A stretch of DNA of 63,172 bases, counting the filler, from Reclinomonas americana ATCC 50394 (lineage: Eukaryota), in NCBI GenBank assembly GCA_048213135.1. It is 49 parts of 49 records of this genome, joined end to end, with 100 filler letters (N's around TTAATTAATTAA, not from the genome) between each part and the next. Parts side by side here need not be neighbours in the genome. Positions count along the whole stretch, not along the records: positions 41,405 to 42,593 come from AFZH01026189.1; 48 more parts are not named here. One strand, 5' to 3'. Below the pieces are notes generated by a model that saw only the letters and a program-made list of their open reading frames with translations, did no database searches and was not told the DNA's origin. The translations under genes were made by a program, and so were the position numbers. Positions 5,183-42,914 of the stretch are shown here, in pieces (within the stretch, counting starts at the first letter, position 1; every line of letters begins with the position of its first letter).

Positions 5183-6378
5183 GTTGCACAAACGTGTTCG
5201 GACCGCAGCGAGCAGCTTCTCACCTCTTCCAAAATGTGCCGTGTGTGCGTATCAAGCAGCAGTGAAAGGTCCGAGGCCTTGCTGCAAGTTGGCTGCAGCG
5301 TTGGAAGCAGCAGCAGCGCTTTGCGGACCCGAGCGGCGACCGCCTCGCCTTGCTCCACAATCGCCCGAACGCGATGATGCGCGCCGGCGCCGCGATCATC
5401 GGGCGCCACTTGGTCGCAAACCGCTTGCACACACGTCAGCAGCTGTTGCTGAGCTGTGAGAGCTGGAACAGACGACGTGCAGAGGCTTGCCACGCGGCTG
5501 TCGCGATCCTCCGCTGGTATCACGGACAGAAGCTCGACTGCGACCGGCGGTGCCGGTGGCGCATCACTGCTCCCGTCAAACGTGAATCCTGCAACGGTGT
5601 AAGCAGGTACAGTAGCAGGCGCACCACAATCACAGATGAGCTCACTCACCATGTAGACGATTGACGGCGGCCTGCAGGTGCTGCTCAATTGGCTCGCGCA
5701 CCCTGCTTCGCTCGCGCGTCGCAGCATCGTCGTCGTCTGTCGGTATCTCCGTGAGAACAAGATTGTGGCATGCTGTGACGTGTGTGGACGCAACTTGGTG
5801 GTGAACCATCCATAAACTGCACCAAACTACTCTTGCTGCTAGAAACAGCATCACGGAGCTGCCTCTCGAGGTCGCCCACGTGTCCGCGCACCTGCAGCAA
5901 CTCCTCGTCCATTCTCACGATTCGCTCCTGCAGTTCCGTACGCTTCACAAATCCGTCGTCTGCCTGGTTCCGGAAGACGTCGCGCTCTCGCTCAGCCTGA
6001 GCCAGCTGACGACGCAGGTCACTCAATTCACGCCGCAACAAGTCGCTTTCTCGCTCCTTGTCTCGATCCTCGTCCACCATCGACAGCCGTCGGACTGCGT
6101 GCGCAACTTCGTCGCTCGCTTCGCGCTGTTGGACAGCTCCGTGGCGCGACACGGCCGATGGCGGGGGCGGCAGTGGTGCTGTAGGCAAGACCGTGGGCCG
6201 ACTGGCTGCAGTGGTGGGAGCGACTACGTCCCGCCGCTGTGGATGGTGCACGGCAGCTGTGCTGCGGGATGGCGAGTCAGGCACTGGTTGGCACGGCGCC
6301 ACCGCCATCGTCTTGGCATACGAGATGTCTCGCTGATCAACATCGACGTCGGCCACCTGCTGGCAGAGGCGGGCGAGC
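5183..6378 (-). CDS. Hypothetical coiled-coil protein, multi-exon (copy A)
   Basis: Heptad-rich RRELSDLRRQLAQAERERD...LERQLRD segment; near-identical to 14255-15449. Confidence 0.55.
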
Positions 6379-12859: not shown

Positions 12860-13028
12860 NNNNNNNNNNNNNNNNNNNNNNNNNNNNNNNNNNNNNNNNN
12901 NNNTTAATTAATTAANNNNNNNNNNNNNNNNNNNNNNNNNNNNNNNNNNNNNNNNNNNNCCTGGTTCGTTTGTGAGTCTCCTTGCTTCATGATGTGCTTC
13001 TGTCACCTCACCTTTGCTTCCTTTCCAG

Positions 13029-13821
13029 GTGTCCACGCCACCACTGTCGGCCGAGCACTACGCCGTCATCAACATGCATCTGCAACAGCTCGAGCATCTC
13101 AAAATCATGTCGAAACCCTCGCCCGGCGGTGCGTGCCCTGTCAGCAGAGCATGCACACATGTGCCGTTGCTCACTCCTGACCGCCACAGCAGACGACCGC
13201 CCACTGTACAACTGCACGATCTCGCTTCCACGTCTCAAGACATTACGTATTTCGGCGTCGTCGCGCAAGTTGCTCGGCTGGAACATTCGGTGCCCGGAAC
13301 TCGAGGTGAGTGCTTGTGCTCTTGTCGGAGGGCGCGCAATGGAGACGGCTGCTGATTGAGATGAGCAGGTGTTCATGTTGCGTGCGCACGTCTTCGAGCC
13401 CGGCGAAGTCGAGCTTCCCCAGTTGCGCGAGCTGGTGCTGGCCGGGTTGCGAGCGACCTCGCGCTTCATGGTGCTCGAGGGCGTTCTGGCGTGCCCGGCC
13501 ATCGAGAGCGTGCAGATGCAGCTGGTGTGCGAGTGCCCGACGGACGCAGCAGCAGCAGCAGCAGCAGTGGAAGGCGGCAGTGATCCGCCCGACGCGCCAT
13601 TCATGCCACCCTCGCTCAGCACTCTCAGCTGCCCGGATCTGCGACAGATCCGCATCGCGCCCATGATCCGGCTGCAAACGCCACCGGGTCCACCGTGCGA
13701 TCGCTGCTCCACCCCGCGAGTGACCATCGAATGCTCCGCCAGTGGCGACGTCGCCATGGCCGATCCACTCACTGGCGCACTCTCGCTCACACTCCAGCGC
13801 AGATCGCCACCACCACCATAG
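13029..13821 (+). CDS. Leucine-rich-repeat-like protein, 3' exons (copy A)
   Basis: Repeated LPRLKTLRI, CPELE, LPQLRELVL, CPAIESV and CPDLRQIRI units; stop at 13821. Confidence 0.55.
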
Positions 13822-13929
13822 TAATAATAATAATGATGATAAACACAAAGCCGCACTTGTCGCTCCTGTCATCGACGTCTGCTTGTCGCCGGACAGAGAC
13901 GAAAAGGAATCCACTCGCCACCGACGCTC

Positions 13930-14154
13930 ATGAGAAGACCACGCACCGCTGTTCTTGTTGGCGGAGAGATTGGTCGCAGTCCACGCATGCAGTACCACGC
14001 ACTGGCACTCGCCGATGTTGCGTTCGTCACCTCTGACAGTGACACGCAGACAACTCACTCCAACTCTTCCGCCACGCAACAGGTGGCCGGCCACGACGTG
14101 GATCTGATCGGCTTCCAAGGTGCGCTGCTCACCTCGCCACCAGCTGCCTTCCCA
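13930..14154 (+). CDS. ALG1: Chitobiosyldiphosphodolichol beta-mannosyltransferase, 5' exons (copy A)
   Basis: AVLVGGEIGRSPRMQYHALALAD/VAGHDVDLIGF matches the ALG1 hallmark GDxGRSPRMQYHA. Confidence 0.88.
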
Positions 14155-14254: not shown

Positions 14255-15449
14255 CTGCATAAACGCGTTCGGACCGCAGCGAGCAGCTTCTCACCTCTTC
14301 CAAAATGTGCCGTGTGTGCGTATCAAGCAGCAGTGAAAGGTCCGAGGCCTTGCTGCAAGTTGGCTGCAGCGTTGGAAGCAGCAGCAGCGCTTTGCGGACC
14401 CGAGCGGCGACCGCCTCGCCTTGCTCCACAATCGCCCGAACGCGATGAAGTGCGCCGGCGCCGCGATCATCGGGCACCACTTGGTCGCAAACCGCTTGCA
14501 CGCACGTCAGCAGCTGTTGCTGTGCTGTAAGGGCTGGAACAGACGACGTGCAGAGGCTGGCCACGCGGCTGTCGCGATCCTCCGCTGGTATCACGGAGAG
14601 CAGCTCGACTGCGACCCGCGGTGCCGGTGGTGCATCACTGCTCCCGTCAAACGTGAATCCTGCAACGGTGTAAGCAGGTACAGTAGCAGGCGCACCACAA
14701 TCACAGATGAGCTCACTCACCATGTAGACGATTGACGGCGGCCTGCAGGTGCTGCTCAATTGGCTCGCGCACCCTGCCTCGCTCGCGCGTCGCATCATCG
14801 TCGTCGTCTGTCGGTATCTCCGTTAGAACAAGTTTGCGGCATGCTGTGACGTGTGTGGACGCAACTTGGTGGTGAACCATCCATAAACTGCACCAAACTA
14901 CTCTTGCTGCTAGAAACAGCATCACGGAGCTGCCTCTCGAGGTCGCCCACCTGTCCGCGCACCTGCAGCAACTCCTCGTCCATTCTCACAATTCGCTCCT
15001 GCAGTTCCGTACGCTTCGCAAACCCATCGTCTGCCTGGTTCCGGAAGACGTCGCGCTCTCGCTCAGCCTGAGCCAGCTGACGACGCAGGTCACTCAATTC
15101 ACGCCGCAACAAGTCGCTTTCTCGCTCCTTGTCTCGATCCTCGTCCACCATCGGCAGCCGTCGGACTGCGTGCGCAACTTCGTCGCTCGCTTCGCGCTGT
15201 TGGACAGCTCCGTGGCGCGACACGGCCGATGGCGGGGGCGGCAGTGGTGCTGTAGGCAAGACCGTGGACCGGCTGGCTGCGGTGGTGGGAGCGACTACGT
15301 CCCGCCGCTGTGGATGGTGCACGGCAGCTGTGCTGCGGGATGGCGAGTCAGGCACTGGTTGGCACGGCGCCACCGCCATCGTCTTGGCATACGAGATGTC
15401 TCGCTGATCAACATCGACGTCGGCCACCTGCTGGCAGAGGCGGGCGAGG
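14255..15449 (-). CDS. Hypothetical coiled-coil protein (copy B of 5183-6378)
   Basis: Colinear with copy A, with scattered substitutions and the same end points. Confidence 0.55.
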
Positions 15450-16845: not shown

Positions 16846-17072
16846 AGTGGGAAGGCAGCTGGGGGCGAGGGGAGCAGCGCACCTTGAAAGCCGATCAGAT
16901 CCACGTCGTGGCCGGCCACCTGTTGCGTGGCGGAAGAGTTGGAGTGAGTTGTCTGCGTGTCACTGTCAGAGGTGACGAACGCAACATCGGCGAGTGCCAG
17001 TGCGTGGTACTGCATGCGTGGACTGCGACCAATCTCTCCGCCAACAAGAACAGCGGTGCGTGGTCTTCTCAT
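16846..17072 (-). CDS. ALG1: ALG1 5' exons (copy B)
   Basis: Reverse-complement near-duplicate of 13930-14154. Confidence 0.85.
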
Positions 17073-17181
17073 GAGCGCGGCACGTGGATTCCTTTTCGTC
17101 TCTGTCCGGCGACAAGCAGACGTCGATCGATGAGGAGCGACAAGTGCGGCTTTGTGTTTATCATCATTATTATTATTGCTA

Positions 17182-17971
17182 CTATGGTGGTGGTGGCGAT
17201 CTGCTCTGGAGTGTGAGCGAGAGTGCGCCGGTGAGTGGATCGGCCATGGCGACGTCGCCACTGGCGGAGCATTCGATGGTCACTCGCGGGGTGGAGCAGC
17301 GATCGCACGGTGGACCCGGTGGCGTTTGCAGCCGGATCATGGGCGCGATGCGGATCTGTCGCAGATCCGGGCAGCTGAGAGTGCTGAGCGAGGGTGGCAT
17401 GAATGGCGCGTCGGGCGGATCACTGCCGCCTTCCACTGCTGCTGCTGCTGCTGCGTCCGTCGGGCACTCGCACACCAGCTGCATCTGCACACTCTCAATG
17501 GCCGGGCACGCCAGAACGCCCTCGAGCACCATGAAGCGCGAGGTCGCTCGCAACCCGGCCAGCACCAGCTCGCGCAACTGGGGAAGCTCCACTTCGCCGG
17601 GCTCGAAAACGTGTGCACGCAGCATGAACACCTGCTCATCTCGATCAGCAGCCGTCTCCATCGAGCGCCCTCCGACAGGAGCACGAGCACGCACCTCGAG
17701 TTCTGGGCATCGAATGTTCCAGCCGAGCAGCTTGCGCGACGACGCCGAAATACGCAATGTCTTGAGACGTGGAAGCGAAATCGTGCAGTTGTACAGTGGG
17801 CGGTCGTCTGCTGTGGCGGTCAGGAGTGAGCAACGGCACATGTGTGCATGCTCTGCTGACAGTGCACGAACCGCCGGGCGAGGGTTTCGACATGATTTTG
17901 AGATGCTCGAGCTGTTGCAGGTGCATGTTGATGACGGCGTAGTGCTCGGCCGACAGTGGTGGCGTGGACAC
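17182..17971 (-). CDS. LRR-like protein 3' exons (copy B)
   Basis: Reverse-complement near-duplicate of 13029-13821, with one fewer Ala in the polyA run. Confidence 0.55.
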
Positions 17972-19498
17972 CTGGAAGGGAGGCAGAGGTGAGGTGACAG
18001 AAGCACATCATGAAGCAAGGAGACTCACAAACGAACCAAGNNNNNNNNNNNNNNNNNNNNNNNNNNNNNNNNNNNNNNNNNNNNTTAATTAATTAANNNN
18101 NNNNNNNNNNNNNNNNNNNNNNNNNNNNNNNNNNNNNNNNACGCAAACACTCACCGTGAAATGTGCAGCGCAGCAACAACCGTGTGGTCGATGCGTCCCT
18201 CCTCCTCCGTCGAATCCTGCCTGTCTCTCTCTCTCTCCATCTCTCTCACCAACAAGAAAACACGCTCTCTTTCTCTCTCTCCTCCCCCCTCTCCTCCCTT
18301 CATTCTTGCTCACACACAAACATACAGGCACAGCGATCCACCACCACCACCGTCCGTCATTCTCACGGAGTGGGAAAGGAGAAATCGGTTGAACTGTCGG
18401 ACAGGTGAAATGAGGCAAAAACCGATTGCATGCCGGCCGCCCTCCTGGTGGGTGTGGGTGCGTGGCAGGTGGGAGACAGCCGGCTGCTATTGATGCAGGA
18501 ATAGGGGGCCTGAATTGGGGAAGGAAAAGAACTCTGCAAGAAATGGAAGTGGAGAAAGGGGAAGAAAGGAAGCACGAACGGGCGGTGAGTGGTGGAAATC
18601 GAAGCAATCCGGCATGGTACCGAATGAAATGCAGCCGAGATATCCGACAGGGGGATGGGTGAAAGGTGTGAGTGAGATGAATTGCACGATGGAGTCGATG
18701 GAGAGAGTGGAGAAGATGCACAGCATGCGAAACACTCACACAGACGCATGCAGCAAGCAACGGTGCGGATTCAGCTGAAATGATGGCCATCGATGGAATA
18801 ACAGGGCGGGAATGAGGTCAGATTTGGAAACAAAGGATGGGATCACATGGGCGGAGCGGGGAAGAAGGATTCTGCCAGAGGGAATGCGGAATGCAGATGC
18901 CGGTGAGGAGCTGCAATGGATTGACTGATGCAATTCCGATGGAAGATTGAGAAAATTGTGGAGGGTGGAGGAGAGGCGAAGCAGGTCATTTGATGCAAGT
19001 GCCATGTACAAGGAGAAGTGAGGAAGGGTGATGCAGTGGGGAATCAAGAATTGAGATACTGGTGGGGAGATACGAGGAGGGACATTTGATTGGTCACTTC
19101 CGAACTCACATGAATCGCAGAGAGAGGGTGAAAGGAGAGGTCAAATCGATCAGCGATTGATGGAGGAGTGGGGATGGAGAGGTGCGAGAGTGTATTCTTG
19201 GAGTGGAATGAGGAAAATAAGAAAGGCACGGGTGAGAATTGGGGAATGGAGATGGAAGGGCGAGAATTGGGGAAAGGAGATGGTAGGGAGCAAGGGCGAG
19301 AATTGGGGAAAGGATGTGGGGAGGGAATAGAATGTNNNNNNNNNNNNNNNNNNNNNNNNNNNNNNNNNNNNNNNNNNNNTTAATTAATTAANNNNNNNNN
19401 NNNNNNNNNNNNNNNNNNNNNNNNNNNNNNNNNNNGTGTGTGTGTGGTGGACATGGACATGGCGATGCACATGCGACTCACACCTCTCTCACGCGCAG

Positions 19499-25903: not shown

Positions 25904-26330
25904 ACCGTGGCCGGGGTGGTGCCGGCGAGGAAGGCGGTGCGGGCCTGCGGGGTCAGCTCGCCAAAGCCGTGGCGCCAGCCGAGCATCGCCCGGGCGAACA
26001 AGGGCATCGCCCCGATCTGTGCTTCGGCCCGCAGGCCCACCGCGATGAAGCCCTGATTGCGGGTGGCGGCGATGGAGATGCCGCCTGTGCTGCCTCCGCC
26101 ATTGTCCGGGCCAAAGCCGGCGCCATTGCGCGTCATCGTCAGCGTGACGTTCTGGCTGTCATAGGCCAGGGACGGCGTCAGGAAGGCGAGGTTCGAGGTC
26201 AGCGCCGAGAACTGGCCGGTCACGCCCCCGTGGCGGTCAGGATGGTTTAGCGCGTCGCCGCCGCGTAGTTGCCGCTCTCGGCCAGCACCTGCACCGTCCC
26301 ACCCGTGATCGCCGTGCTGTGCAAAGCCGC
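25904..26330 (-). pseudogene. Bacterial autotransporter remnant
   Basis: GGTVQVLAESGNYAAATR*TILTATG carries a TAA at 26249-26247 and then a frameshift. GVTGQFSALTSNLAFLTPSLAYD..NVTL is fused directly to late barrel strands LRAEAQ...LGWRHGFG. Confidence 0.7.
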
Positions 26331-26338
26331 TACAACTT

Positions 26339-27096
26339 TCAATAGGTGACCACCGCCTGAATCGTGTCGGCGTACTGACCCGGTGACGGTGTGGCCTGAG
26401 CCGGGACACGTCCGTAGACATGGCTCGTCTGCGCCAGACCGGAGCCGATGCCCGTCAATGTATCGAGGCCGAGCGTGCTGCCGAAGGGTTGGCTTCGCGC
26501 GACATCCCGATAGAGCCCGTAGGTGATCGTCTCCGCTCCCTTCGTCATGCGCCTCATCGTTGGATTCGTGGCACCCGACAAGCCGCCGTTCAGGCCGATC
26601 TGATAGGCGGTGCCATTCGTGCAGGTCGGTGCCAGGGTCGTGAACGCGTCCTGCGGCGTGGCCAGCACGCCGACCGAGCCGAAATTCAGATCGCTTGTCG
26701 TCACCCGGCAGGTCGCCGGCACGTTCGCGCTGACCGTGAAGCTCGTCGACTGGGTCACGGTAAGGAGCTCGCAGCCGAGCAGGAAAGACAGGAGCCCGTA
26801 GCGGACCCGGGCGTCGGTGCCGGCGAAGCTGCTGGAGTAGGTGACGGGCGCCGCGGTAGCCTGGCCACTGTAGACACGGCCATAGATGGTGACGCTCCGG
26901 CTGCCGGTGCCAGATGCGGACAAGGTCAGGTTGAAGCCGACTGCCGAAGCTCCGCCCGCAGGCCAGCCTCCCGATCCCCAGGGCACGCTGGCCGCCGCAT
27001 CGGAGAACAGGCCGTAGTGCAACTGGTTGGCGCCGTTCGTCAGGGTCCGGTTTGCTGCGCTGGTGCCGCCGCCGCTCCCGGGCCCGAGTTCGATGC
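26339..27096 (-). CDS. Bacterial spore-coat-U domain / Csu-type fimbrial protein (two SCPU domains), 5' partial
   Basis: FTVSANVPATCRV...LNFGS, TCTNGTAYQIGLNGG, RRMTKGAETITYGLYRD, VYGRVPAQATPSPGQYADTIQAVVTY*; intronless with high GC3. Confidence 0.9.
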
Positions 27097-40116: not shown

Positions 40117-40739
40117 ATGTCGCGCTGGCTCTGGCGCTCACGGCCATCATCGTCGCGTTCCTCGGCCAGCCGTCGTCCGGGTCGATGTCTCCGACGCTCG
40201 AGCCGGGCGACCGGATCGTCGTGAACAGGCTCGCCTTCGTCGGCTCCGACCCCACGCCCGGCGACATCGTCGTGTTCCGCCCCGACGACAGCTGGGGCGA
40301 GAAGCCCGCTGCCGGCAACTGGGCGAGCGGTGCCCTGCAGTGGATCGGCGAGACCACCGGCATCCGTCCCTACGTGCTGGTGAAGCGGGTCATCGCGGGC
40401 GAAGGTCAGACCGTCGAATGCTGCGACGCCGAGGGGCGAGTCCTCGTCAACGGCGAGCCGCTCGACGAGCCGTACGTCGTGAAGGACCTGCCGTTCGTCA
40501 GCGGCGAGCTCGACTGCGACACCACTCCCCTGTCGACGCGGTGCTTCGCGAAGGTGACCGTGCCCGAGGACTCGTACCTCGTGCTGGGCGACAACAGGGC
40601 GAACTCCGCAGACTCCGTCTTCCTATGCCGCGGCGCCGCCGATCCGGATGACGGATGCTGGCGCTGGATGCAGCGGGACTCGGTGTTCGGCAAGGCGGGC
40701 CCGATCCTGTGGCCCGTGTCGCGTTGGGGCGGCCCGTAG
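40117..40739 (+). CDS. lepB: Bacterial signal peptidase I, 5' partial
   Basis: SGSMSPTLEPGDRIVVNRL (Ser), LVKRVIA (Lys), VECCD..GRV.VNGEPLDEPY, LGDNRANSADS; actinobacterial style. Confidence 0.92.
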
Positions 40740-40749
40740 TCGCCGCGGA

Positions 40750-41304
40750 TCAGCCGCAGCCGGGCGTCTCCAGGGTCACCGGCGTCGCACGCACCATGGG
40801 GGTCGTCCAGACGTCGTAGGCGCCGTAGTCCGCTCCGGTGGTGCCCTCGGCGCCCTTCATCGAGACCGTGATCGTCGCTGCCGTCTGCGGGGGTGTCACG
40901 ACGTTGATGCGCACGACCGAGCGGCCGAGGTGCGTGCCCTCCGCGACCAGTGCGAAGCTCTCCGCGCCCTCGACGTTCCACGAGTCGATCGTCGCGCCGA
41001 CAGGAGCGTAGACGACGACATCCGTCGCGATGTGGCCGGGCTCGAAATACGGTCCGGTGATGAAGTAGGGCAGCGCGTCAGCCTGCTCCGGCGTGATGTT
41101 GTTCGCGAACGTGATGGTCTGCTGGAAGGTCGGCGGTCCGGATGCCGTGCACTGGTCGCTGCTGGAGACCACGCTCGCATCCGCGTAGTAGTCGGTCTTC
41201 GCGCCCGTCGTGTCGTTGAAGTAGACGCCGGCGATCGTCTTGTCGTCGTTCGTCGCCGGCAGCGTGCCCGCGAGGCGGGTGTCCGACATCATCGCCTCGA
41301 TGTC
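40750..41304 (-). CDS. Actinobacterial DUF4012-like protein C-terminus
   Basis: LAGTLP...GVYFNDTTGAKTDYY...LPYFITG...VYAPVG...TTPM; convergent with lepB. Confidence 0.65.
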   Translation of the reverse strand, partial: DIEAMMSDTRLAGTLPATNDDKTIAGVYFNDTTGAKTDYYADASVVSSSDQCTASGPPTFQQTITFANNITPEQADALPYFITGPYFEPGHIATDVVVYAPVGATIDSWNVEGAESFALVAEGTHLGRSVVRINVVTPPQTAATITVSMKGAEGTTGADYGAYDVWTTPMVRATPVTLETPGCG

Positions 41305-42400
41305 NNNNNNNNNNNNNNNNNNNNNNNNNNNNNNNNNNNNNNNNNNNNTTAATTAATTAANNNNNNNNNNNNNNNNNNNNNNNNNNNNNNNNNNNNNNNN
41401 NNNNTGTTTTGGTAAAGGTTCGAACATCAAGACAGCTGTTTGCTTGTTTGTTGGTGAATGAATTTGTTGTTGTTAGCAATGGAGAGTTTTGTGTATGTAA
41501 ATCTGTTAGAGAGGTAATTATGTGTTTATATATTCTTGGTGTGCCAAGGTCATTGTCGGCAAGGGATTTGCGGGCGTTTATCGCATTATTGGAATGTGGT
41601 GAATGAAGTGTTTTTTTAAGTGAAGGAGCTCCGAGAACGAACACAGACACACACACATGGAACCTGCTGATGCCTCAAGACTGGTATTTGTGTTGATGTT
41701 TTGGATATCACAGCAATTAAATTTCGTCATGTTTCACGGACGGGCAAGTCCCGTTGCCTCTGACTCATCAGTGCGCACACGCTTGTGACTCGAGTCGCGC
41801 TCTCCTCCACTCCAAACTTCTCAGACACAGCCTACAGTGCATGTGCCACACAACCATCGGCAAAAGAACCACACTGAAGTACCTCGACACCGAGGCAATC
41901 CAGCTTGCCCGCCGAGGCAACCCCGCTTGCCCGAGGCAAGCTGGCTTGCCTCGTTGTTCCATCATCGATCGGTGGTCAGACCGGTCGAACAGACAGCACA
42001 CAACGCCACATCCTCATCACGCGGCGCCGGCAGTGCGTGCACGTGCGCTTCTGGCGTGGCCCCCCGTGACCGCATTGCTCGTTCTCGTGGTGCGTATGCT
42101 TCGAGCAAGAACGAGAGAGAGAGAGAGAGAGAGAGTCAGTGAGTGAGAGAGGGCGAGAGAATGAGAGAGAGAGAGAGAGAGAGAAAGGCAGAAGAGGGTG
42201 AGAGGGGAAGCGCTTGCGGAAAGAAGATGCTGATGATTGCACATATATATGCCGCGCAAACTCACTGGTCCTCTCGCCCCTCACTCAACGCACAGACTCT
42301 TCCCTGTGGGCCAGTGATGGAATTCGAAGAGGAGCATGCACACGTGCAGTCAGCATTCTTACTCGACGCCGACGGCAATCGAAAAGTCGTCTGCCCACTT

Positions 42401-42593
42401 GGTCAAGGGTCAAGGGTCAAGGGTCAAGGGTCAAGGGTCAAGGGTCAAGGGTCAAGGGTCAAGGGTCAAGGGTCAAGGGTCAAGGGTCAAGGGTCAAGGG
42501 TCAAGGGTCAAGGGTCAAGGGTCAAGGGTCAAGGGTCAAGGGTCAAGGGTCAAGGGTCAAGGGTCAAGGGTCAAGGGTCAAGGGTCAAGGGTC
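42401..42593 (+). repeat. Perfect (TCAAGGG)n heptamer array, ~27.5 copies, at the contig 3' end; candidate telomere
   Basis: Uninterrupted GGTCAAG units with the G-rich strand pointing to the contig end. Confidence 0.9.
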
Positions 42594-42914
42594 NNNNNNN
42601 NNNNNNNNNNNNNNNNNNNNNNNNNNNNNNNNNNNNNTTAATTAATTAANNNNNNNNNNNNNNNNNNNNNNNNNNNNNNNNNNNNNNNNNNNNGAAGAGA
42701 CGAGGGAAGAGCTTGAGGAAAAGATGGGGGCAAGAGAATGGGGGAAGCGATGTGGGGAAGTGAAGAGGGAAGAGTTGGGGAAGACGGAAGGGGGAGAACA
42801 GAGACCACGGCATGACAAAGCTGGTGACGATTAAAGCACACAGGATTGTAACGATGGAGATGGTTGATCTGAACAAGAAGAACCTTGACAGACCACGGAC
42901 GGGAGTGACGCAAC

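Follow-up and report, generated by a model that had tools for sequence, protein, structure and literature searches.

What is the array of TCAAGGG units that ends one short contig of Reclinomonas americana ATCC 50394, and does it mark the end of a chromosome? The window, i.e., the whole stretch of 63,172 nt that was analysed, is composed of 49 short contigs of ~1.19 kb each with a fixed N spacer between them, and belongs to an assembly (G000) of 108 Mb in 16,441 contigs. Very likely, TCAAGGG serves this organism as its telomeric repeat and is made by telomerase. The array, the contig that carries it, and the adjoining spacer comprise the following features:

41405..41708, + strand: repeat segment common to the telomere-capped contig C883 (94%), also in C9462/C9562.
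42113..42184, + strand: GA microsatellite in the subtelomeric flank.
42190..42402, + strand: junction-proximal flank, single-copy in the assembly, with an abrupt join to the array at ...CACTTGG and no degenerate units.
42401..42593, + strand: (TCAAGGG)n array, very likely telomeric, with 27 perfect units and the G-strand toward the contig end, where the assembly truncates it.
42594..42693, no strand: artificial, non-biological spacer (N44-TTAATTAATTAA-N44) separating unrelated contigs.

The sequence-only reading had described about 27.5 perfect TCAAGGG copies running to the contig end with the G-strand outward, and this description holds. The 193 bp at 42401-42593 consist of GG, 27 perfect TCAAGGG units, and TC (27.6 copies, 100%), and they terminate the 1,189-bp contig C10722 with the G-strand running 5' to 3' outward. 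The same reading had seen no TTAGGG array, and neither the TTAGGG nor the CCCTAA hexamer was present anywhere in the window. Position at a contig end is by itself weak evidence, because in this fragmented assembly dinucleotide repeats are found, without strand bias, at 9 of 98 contig ends of the window (outward GA 4, CT 4, CA 1). The 213-bp flank at 42190..42402 gave only two matches in the assembly, one at its own locus and one partial, over 43 bp of C90. On the proximal side, 304 bp of C10722 are common to C883, and the central ~115 bp of this segment is a dispersed repeat that is also frequent inside large scaffolds. With its abrupt junction on single-copy DNA, the end of C10722 looks like a telomerase-healed break.

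Across the assembly, (TCAAGGG)4 yielded 202 overlapping matches and its reversed control none. All 202 were placed, and they form 15 loci (197 matches in 14 loci and 5 on C11387) instead of the single locus that the sequence-only reading had named as evidence against a telomere. Thirteen of these loci are contig ends (C883, C7524, C8922, C9695, C9724, C10105, C10722, C11387, C11504, C14290, C14775, C15131, and C15552), and the remaining two adjoin N gaps inside scaffolds, on C13 (257.3 kb) and C931 (5.9 kb). The G-strand pointed toward the end or gap in all 15 arrays (binomial p = 6e-5), and it pointed outward in 13/13 when contig-terminal arrays alone were counted (p = 2e-4). Terminal arrays of at least four units spanned at least six unrelated flank types, and the longest assembled array held 30 units. 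Two exit patterns gave 4 and 2 matches, all of them variant units inside arrays already placed or the array on C11387, which stops 5 nt short of its contig end; by these patterns, no array of at least four units continued into unique DNA. As assembled, 13 of the 15 arrays had no DNA distal to them, a contig end not being equivalent to a chromosome end. Those on C13 and C931 were followed past the N gap by ~5.9 and ~5.5 kb of scaffolded sequence, respectively, which reflects either mis-scaffolding or true interstitial arrays. Shorter outward TCAAGGG copies ended C9783, C9827, C11373, and C8736, and further ones were found on C2459, 12 nt short of its end, and on C340, next to a gap. Distal TCAAGG, CAAGG, and CAG tails on C9724, C11504, and C8736 were left out of the template inference because they are possibly homopolymer read errors.

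Other candidate repeats in the same genome were searched for as well. A mixed family of TTGAGGG, TGGAGGG, and TCGAGGG units gave 139 matches, of which the 100 listed lay on 20 contigs. Among the matches listed, 15 loci were flanked on both sides (including C401, which has a gap 14 nt downstream), 2 were outward, and 3 were inward. The mixed units and both polarities, as seen in these 100 of 139 matches, ruled out TTGAGGG/TGGAGGG as a real telomere. Canonical TTAGGG caps, which the sequence-only reading had listed for checking, were found at no end: (TTAGGG)3 matched six times and (TTTAGGG)3 twice genome-wide, all at one internal site (C130:15.8 kb). This C130 run was rejected as a telomere, since it is a gap-adjacent slippage gradient into TAGG, TAG, and AG that points into unique DNA. 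A search with (TYDGGG)4, a pattern matching TTAGGG, TTGGGG, TTTGGG, and TCAGGG, added only one internal TCGGGG match, and no (TCAGGG)4 array was present in the genome. Searches for TTAGGG-type repeats and, among the matches listed, for mixed heptamers returned no second telomere-like terminal repeat.

The flanks of the arrays contained a subtelomere. A long unit with 85-99% identity is common to six capped contigs (C883, C8922, C9724, C10105, C11504, and C14775). The distal 400 bp of this unit occurred in 12 copies, all on small unplaced contigs (~2 kb or less), and five of them were capped. Six of the seven uncapped copies were oriented alike and stopped at, or a little short of, the position at which C10105 enters its repeats; the seventh, on C9010, runs on into other DNA. 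The copy on C9317 stops on the first GGTCAAG. In C10105, the subtelomeric unit is followed by CCGAGGG/CCAAGGG variants and then by perfect TCAAGGG units. A succession of shared subtelomere, degenerate proximal repeats, and perfect distal repeats is typical of chromosome ends. In its proximal part, the subtelomeric family is a dispersed repeat inside large scaffolds too.

A telomerase that could make such a repeat was also predicted. PF12009 matched two scaffolds, C233 and C281, whose TERT copies are ~95% alike over the first 2.3 kb and are probably alleles. The copy on C233 contained a TRBD (PF12009, E 1.4e-10), a TEN match below the cut-off (E 0.0014), and, in the RT domain, motifs A, B', C, and E including the three aspartates (exon structure read by eye). 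A word search with the TERT exon returned no matches, but a HMMER search of 1.8 billion proteins did find relatives, and the best relatives of the RT exon were TERTs. PF02765 exceeded its cut-off on C298 and C821, and POT1 is the predicted single-strand telomere-binding protein here. TERT, which the sequence-only reading had suggested looking for, is thus present with TEN, TRBD, and RT motifs, accompanied by POT1, and to judge from these genes the telomerase machinery appears otherwise ordinary.

TCAAGGG is regarded as telomeric because its perfect arrays occur only at ends or gaps and in one polarity, because a multicopy subtelomere grades into the repeat, and because TERT and POT1 are both encoded; the proposal of a TCAAGGG telomere, made from the window alone, is supported by the same lines of evidence. 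A standard telomerase would copy an RNA template with CCCUUGA plus a short alignment region. The altered template that the sequence-only reading had envisaged may have arisen by mutation of an ancestral TTAGGG type once this lineage had separated from that of Andalucia.

TCAAGGG, in any rotation, is absent from the motif sheet of TeloBase Table S1 (545 rows; PMC10767889), in which the nearest motifs are TCTAGGG, TTAAGGG, TCAGGG, and TTCAGGG. The first two are also 7-mers, each one substitution from TCAAGGG; the sheet gives no organisms for them, so as far as tested their resemblance to TCAAGGG is convergent. TCAGGG and TTCAGGG are C-containing G3 repeats like TCAAGGG, but without AA; TCAGGG, one deletion from TCAAGGG, is a plausible step from TTAGGG. 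TCTAGGG is the repeat of chlorarachniophyte nucleomorphs. Within Discoba, the relevant passages of PMC3622300 give TTAGGG for Andalucia godoyi and trypanosomatids and TTTGGG for Naegleria gruberi, and they report TTAGGG as probably ancestral for eukaryotes; neither TCAAGGG nor CCCTTGA occurs in these passages or in supplement file 2. Andalucia godoyi is a jakobid like the present organism (by one marker) and has a G3-ended repeat, but the repeat here is 7 instead of 6 nt long and has TCAA for TTA, i.e., at least two changes. The trypanosomatid and Naegleria motifs in those passages indicate repeat changes within Discoba, but neither contains C. In the literature searched, the only jakobid telomere repeat was the TTAGGG of Andalucia in the same passages of PMC3622300; the passages of PMC7050145 on Andalucia describe subtelomeric scaffolds of transposon or viral-like sequence and give no telomere repeat. 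The full-text literature searched, with supplements and most subscription journals outside its scope, contained no report of a TCAAGGG telomere. Relative to the sources checked, TCAAGGG appears to be a new repeat in what is very probably a telomerase-made telomere of ordinary mechanism; the surprise is moderate, since new telomere motifs are found often (the TeloBase list holds ~540).

The repeat is an added motif for telomere catalogues and assembly tools, and the exact template CCCUUGA can serve as bait for the jakobid telomerase RNA, the type of which was not found described. With two changes in the repeat, the adaptation of POT1 and TERT to it can also be tested. Several of the roots proposed for the eukaryote tree lie close to the jakobids, and a switch from TTAGGG to TCAAGGG within them would mean that the ancestral repeat was not fixed in the group.

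For seven ends, the departure point of the capped copy could be set by comparison with an intact paralog. In C8922, C11504, C14775, and C15131, the caps start at four separate positions in the subtelomeric family. C7524 was capped in a tandem gene repeat and C13 inside an ORF of NACHT type (motifs identified by eye). C9695 (L038:1663-1845) contained an rDNA copy with its upstream spacer that was capped 55 nt after the 18S start; the intact counterpart is on C13845. The paralogs of all seven capped flanks continue without the repeat. Microhomology at these junctions, in the order given, was 3, 2, 3, 2, 3, 1, and 1 nt (the overlap at C7524 was read by eye), and a blunt-join simulation gave P = 0.001-0.008 for the sum. 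Short microhomology at junctions is a prediction of telomerase-mediated healing. A broken 3' end would pair over 1-3 nt with the template and be healed by telomerase, and such pairing at broken ends would produce staggered junctions. The further claim that an unusually permissive telomerase routinely caps breaks on 1-3 nt of homology, and that truncations within rDNA, within NACHT (NLR-like) genes, and within virus-like endogenous inserts thereby reshape chromosome ends, is considered unlikely. If true, permissive capping could be the regulated removal of viral inserts, the diversification of subtelomeric immune-type genes, or programmed chromosome fragmentation in a deep-branching eukaryote.

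Library chimeras also form at short microhomologies. It is quite unlikely that the staggered junctions are chimeras of this kind, produced by template switching at microhomology, with only the C10105-type end native; the motif would still be telomeric in that case. Each junction was seen once and in the assembly only, which speaks for chimeras. On the other hand, chimeras predict both polarities and the resumption of other DNA, whereas the long arrays were all outward and terminal, and terminal truncation is to be expected for four of the seven junctions, which fall within the subtelomeric repeat family.

A very improbable source of the arrays is an ordinary heptamer microsatellite or satellite that breaks the short-read assembly, the real telomeres being absent from it. 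The genome is rich in contig-ending simple repeats, two of the arrays are at scaffold gaps, and TCAAGGG is not confined to ends. TCAAGGG dimers started at 92 sites, all of which were examined, against none for the reversed control; 16 were in long arrays, 5 were short copies that pointed outward and lay at an end or gap or close to one, and 71 were interstitial. With 71 such sites, TCAAGGG is also part of dispersed repeats, and the interstitial dimers and trimers belong to a minisatellite of ~41 bp, to a MITE-like element, and to purine-rich tracts. True telomere motifs are often accompanied by short internal copies of this kind. Metagenomes contained 87 stretches with (TCAAGGG)6, mostly within degenerate TTTAGGG-like tracts, and of the 80 loci classified 62 were internal, 8 outward, and 10 inward; none of these 80 provided an independent terminal TCAAGGG telomere. 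Set against the 15/15 outward arrays found here, the 62/80 internal loci indicate that TCAAGGG is a plain microsatellite elsewhere and a polar terminal repeat in this genome. An internal array predicts both polarities, as in the control repeats, but only one was observed. Moreover, the paralogs that continue without the repeat tell against a microsatellite, and capping accounts better than slippage for an array that is inserted 55 nt into 18S rDNA and has no sequence after it.

The dispersed elements that carry interstitial copies were located as follows:

L063, L100, L104, L111, L119, and L121 (C56, C8780, C11634, C15630, C717, and C971): copies of a ~190-bp MITE-like element with imperfect C-rich/G-rich inverted ends and an internal TCAAGGG dimer.
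L066, L074, L075, L077, L128, L137, and others: sites of the ~41-bp dispersed minisatellite, in which TCAAGGG is followed by a variant unit.

The minisatellite is the source of many interstitial dimers and may be derived from telomeric DNA. C14056 (L109, 459-473) has the same flank as the capped C15131, with only two TCAAGGG units and then unrelated DNA, and represents either a onetime end that has been fused or repaired or an internal seed with subsequent extension.

That the capped DNA comes not from the main chromosomes but from another eukaryote present in the culture, or from linear extrachromosomal or viral elements, is scarcely credible: the assembly is mixed, the capped contigs are mostly short and more AT-rich (GC 0.40-0.56), and two caps are on AT-rich virus-like inserts, but repeat families, NACHT-type genes, and the style of the microsatellites are common to the capped flanks and to large scaffolds, C13 among them, the TERT (two copies ~95% alike), POT1, and U6 (three identical) genes look like the alleles of one diploid, and no other telomere-like terminal repeat was found. 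The reading that TCAAGGG is the telomere repeat of the organism itself is preferred.

The bacterial DNA in the assembly includes a full bacterial rRNA operon on C1 (L087, 277-282 kb) and GC-rich (0.68-0.69) bacterial-looking contigs in the window (40117-41304 and 25904-27096); the assembly is therefore not a clean single genome. Two near-identical contig pairs were observed in the window (5183-6378 with 14255-15449, and 12960-14154 with 16846-18040), and together with the paired C233/C281 they indicate uncollapsed haplotypes of a heterozygous diploid, so that the true genome is smaller than 108 Mb. A search of the assembly for eukaryotic 18S returned only the bacterial 16S on C1; ~400 nt of the organism's own 18S were recovered. 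The RRP4 exon had its best match in Seculamonas ecuadoriensis (63%, E 6e-76), followed by a match of 52% (E 3e-50), among 112 hits. The RRP4 tree was built from the top 60 hits and two named sequences, leaving out rows that aligned over <150 residues, and its 60 rows placed the exon in a group with S. ecuadoriensis (support 98/85). The best matches of a second marker, DIM1, were two unnamed proteins at 86% and 79%, with no named jakobid among 111 hits, so that DIM1 did not inform on the lineage. The organism is a probable jakobid (Discoba) on the sequence of one gene, RRP4, which is located on a contig other than those with the arrays.

Some capped ends carried further genes. C8736 (L238, 1-5275) and C14290 (L043) both begin with the same host repeat, continue with AT-rich intron-free DNA, and finish in a TCAAGGG end. 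C8736 (GC 0.35) contained an 866-residue fibre-like ORF with YadA_stalk matches that is cut by repeats, plus smaller ORFs, and looks like a truncated endogenous virus-like element. NACHT-type and WD40-repeat genes were at or beside three telomere-repeat sites (domains read by eye), hinting at subtelomeric NLR-like gene families:

L001 (C13:255.8-257.3 kb): NACHT/WD40 site.
L239 (C340:13.7-15.9 kb): NACHT/WD40 site.
L050 (C931): NACHT/WD40 site.

The TRBD region of TERT on C233 (L088:6100-6174), and the same region in C281, harbored a candidate AT-AC intron of ~75 nt that is probably of the U12 type. Its 5' end is ATATCCTTT, a branch site TTCCTTGAC lies 12 nt before the closing AC (by eye), and splicing it out keeps the TRBD frame. 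A U12-type AT-AC intron in TERT suggests a minor spliceosome. Furthermore, U6 snRNA genes were located in an RRP4 intron and just behind DIM1 (L226 [C9242:813-923], L227, and L228), the three copies being identical in sequence. No upstream promoter motif common to the two distinct U6 loci, sought as a handle on the telomerase RNA, was found by eye, and identical U6 genes without a common upstream promoter suggest gene-internal Pol III promoters.
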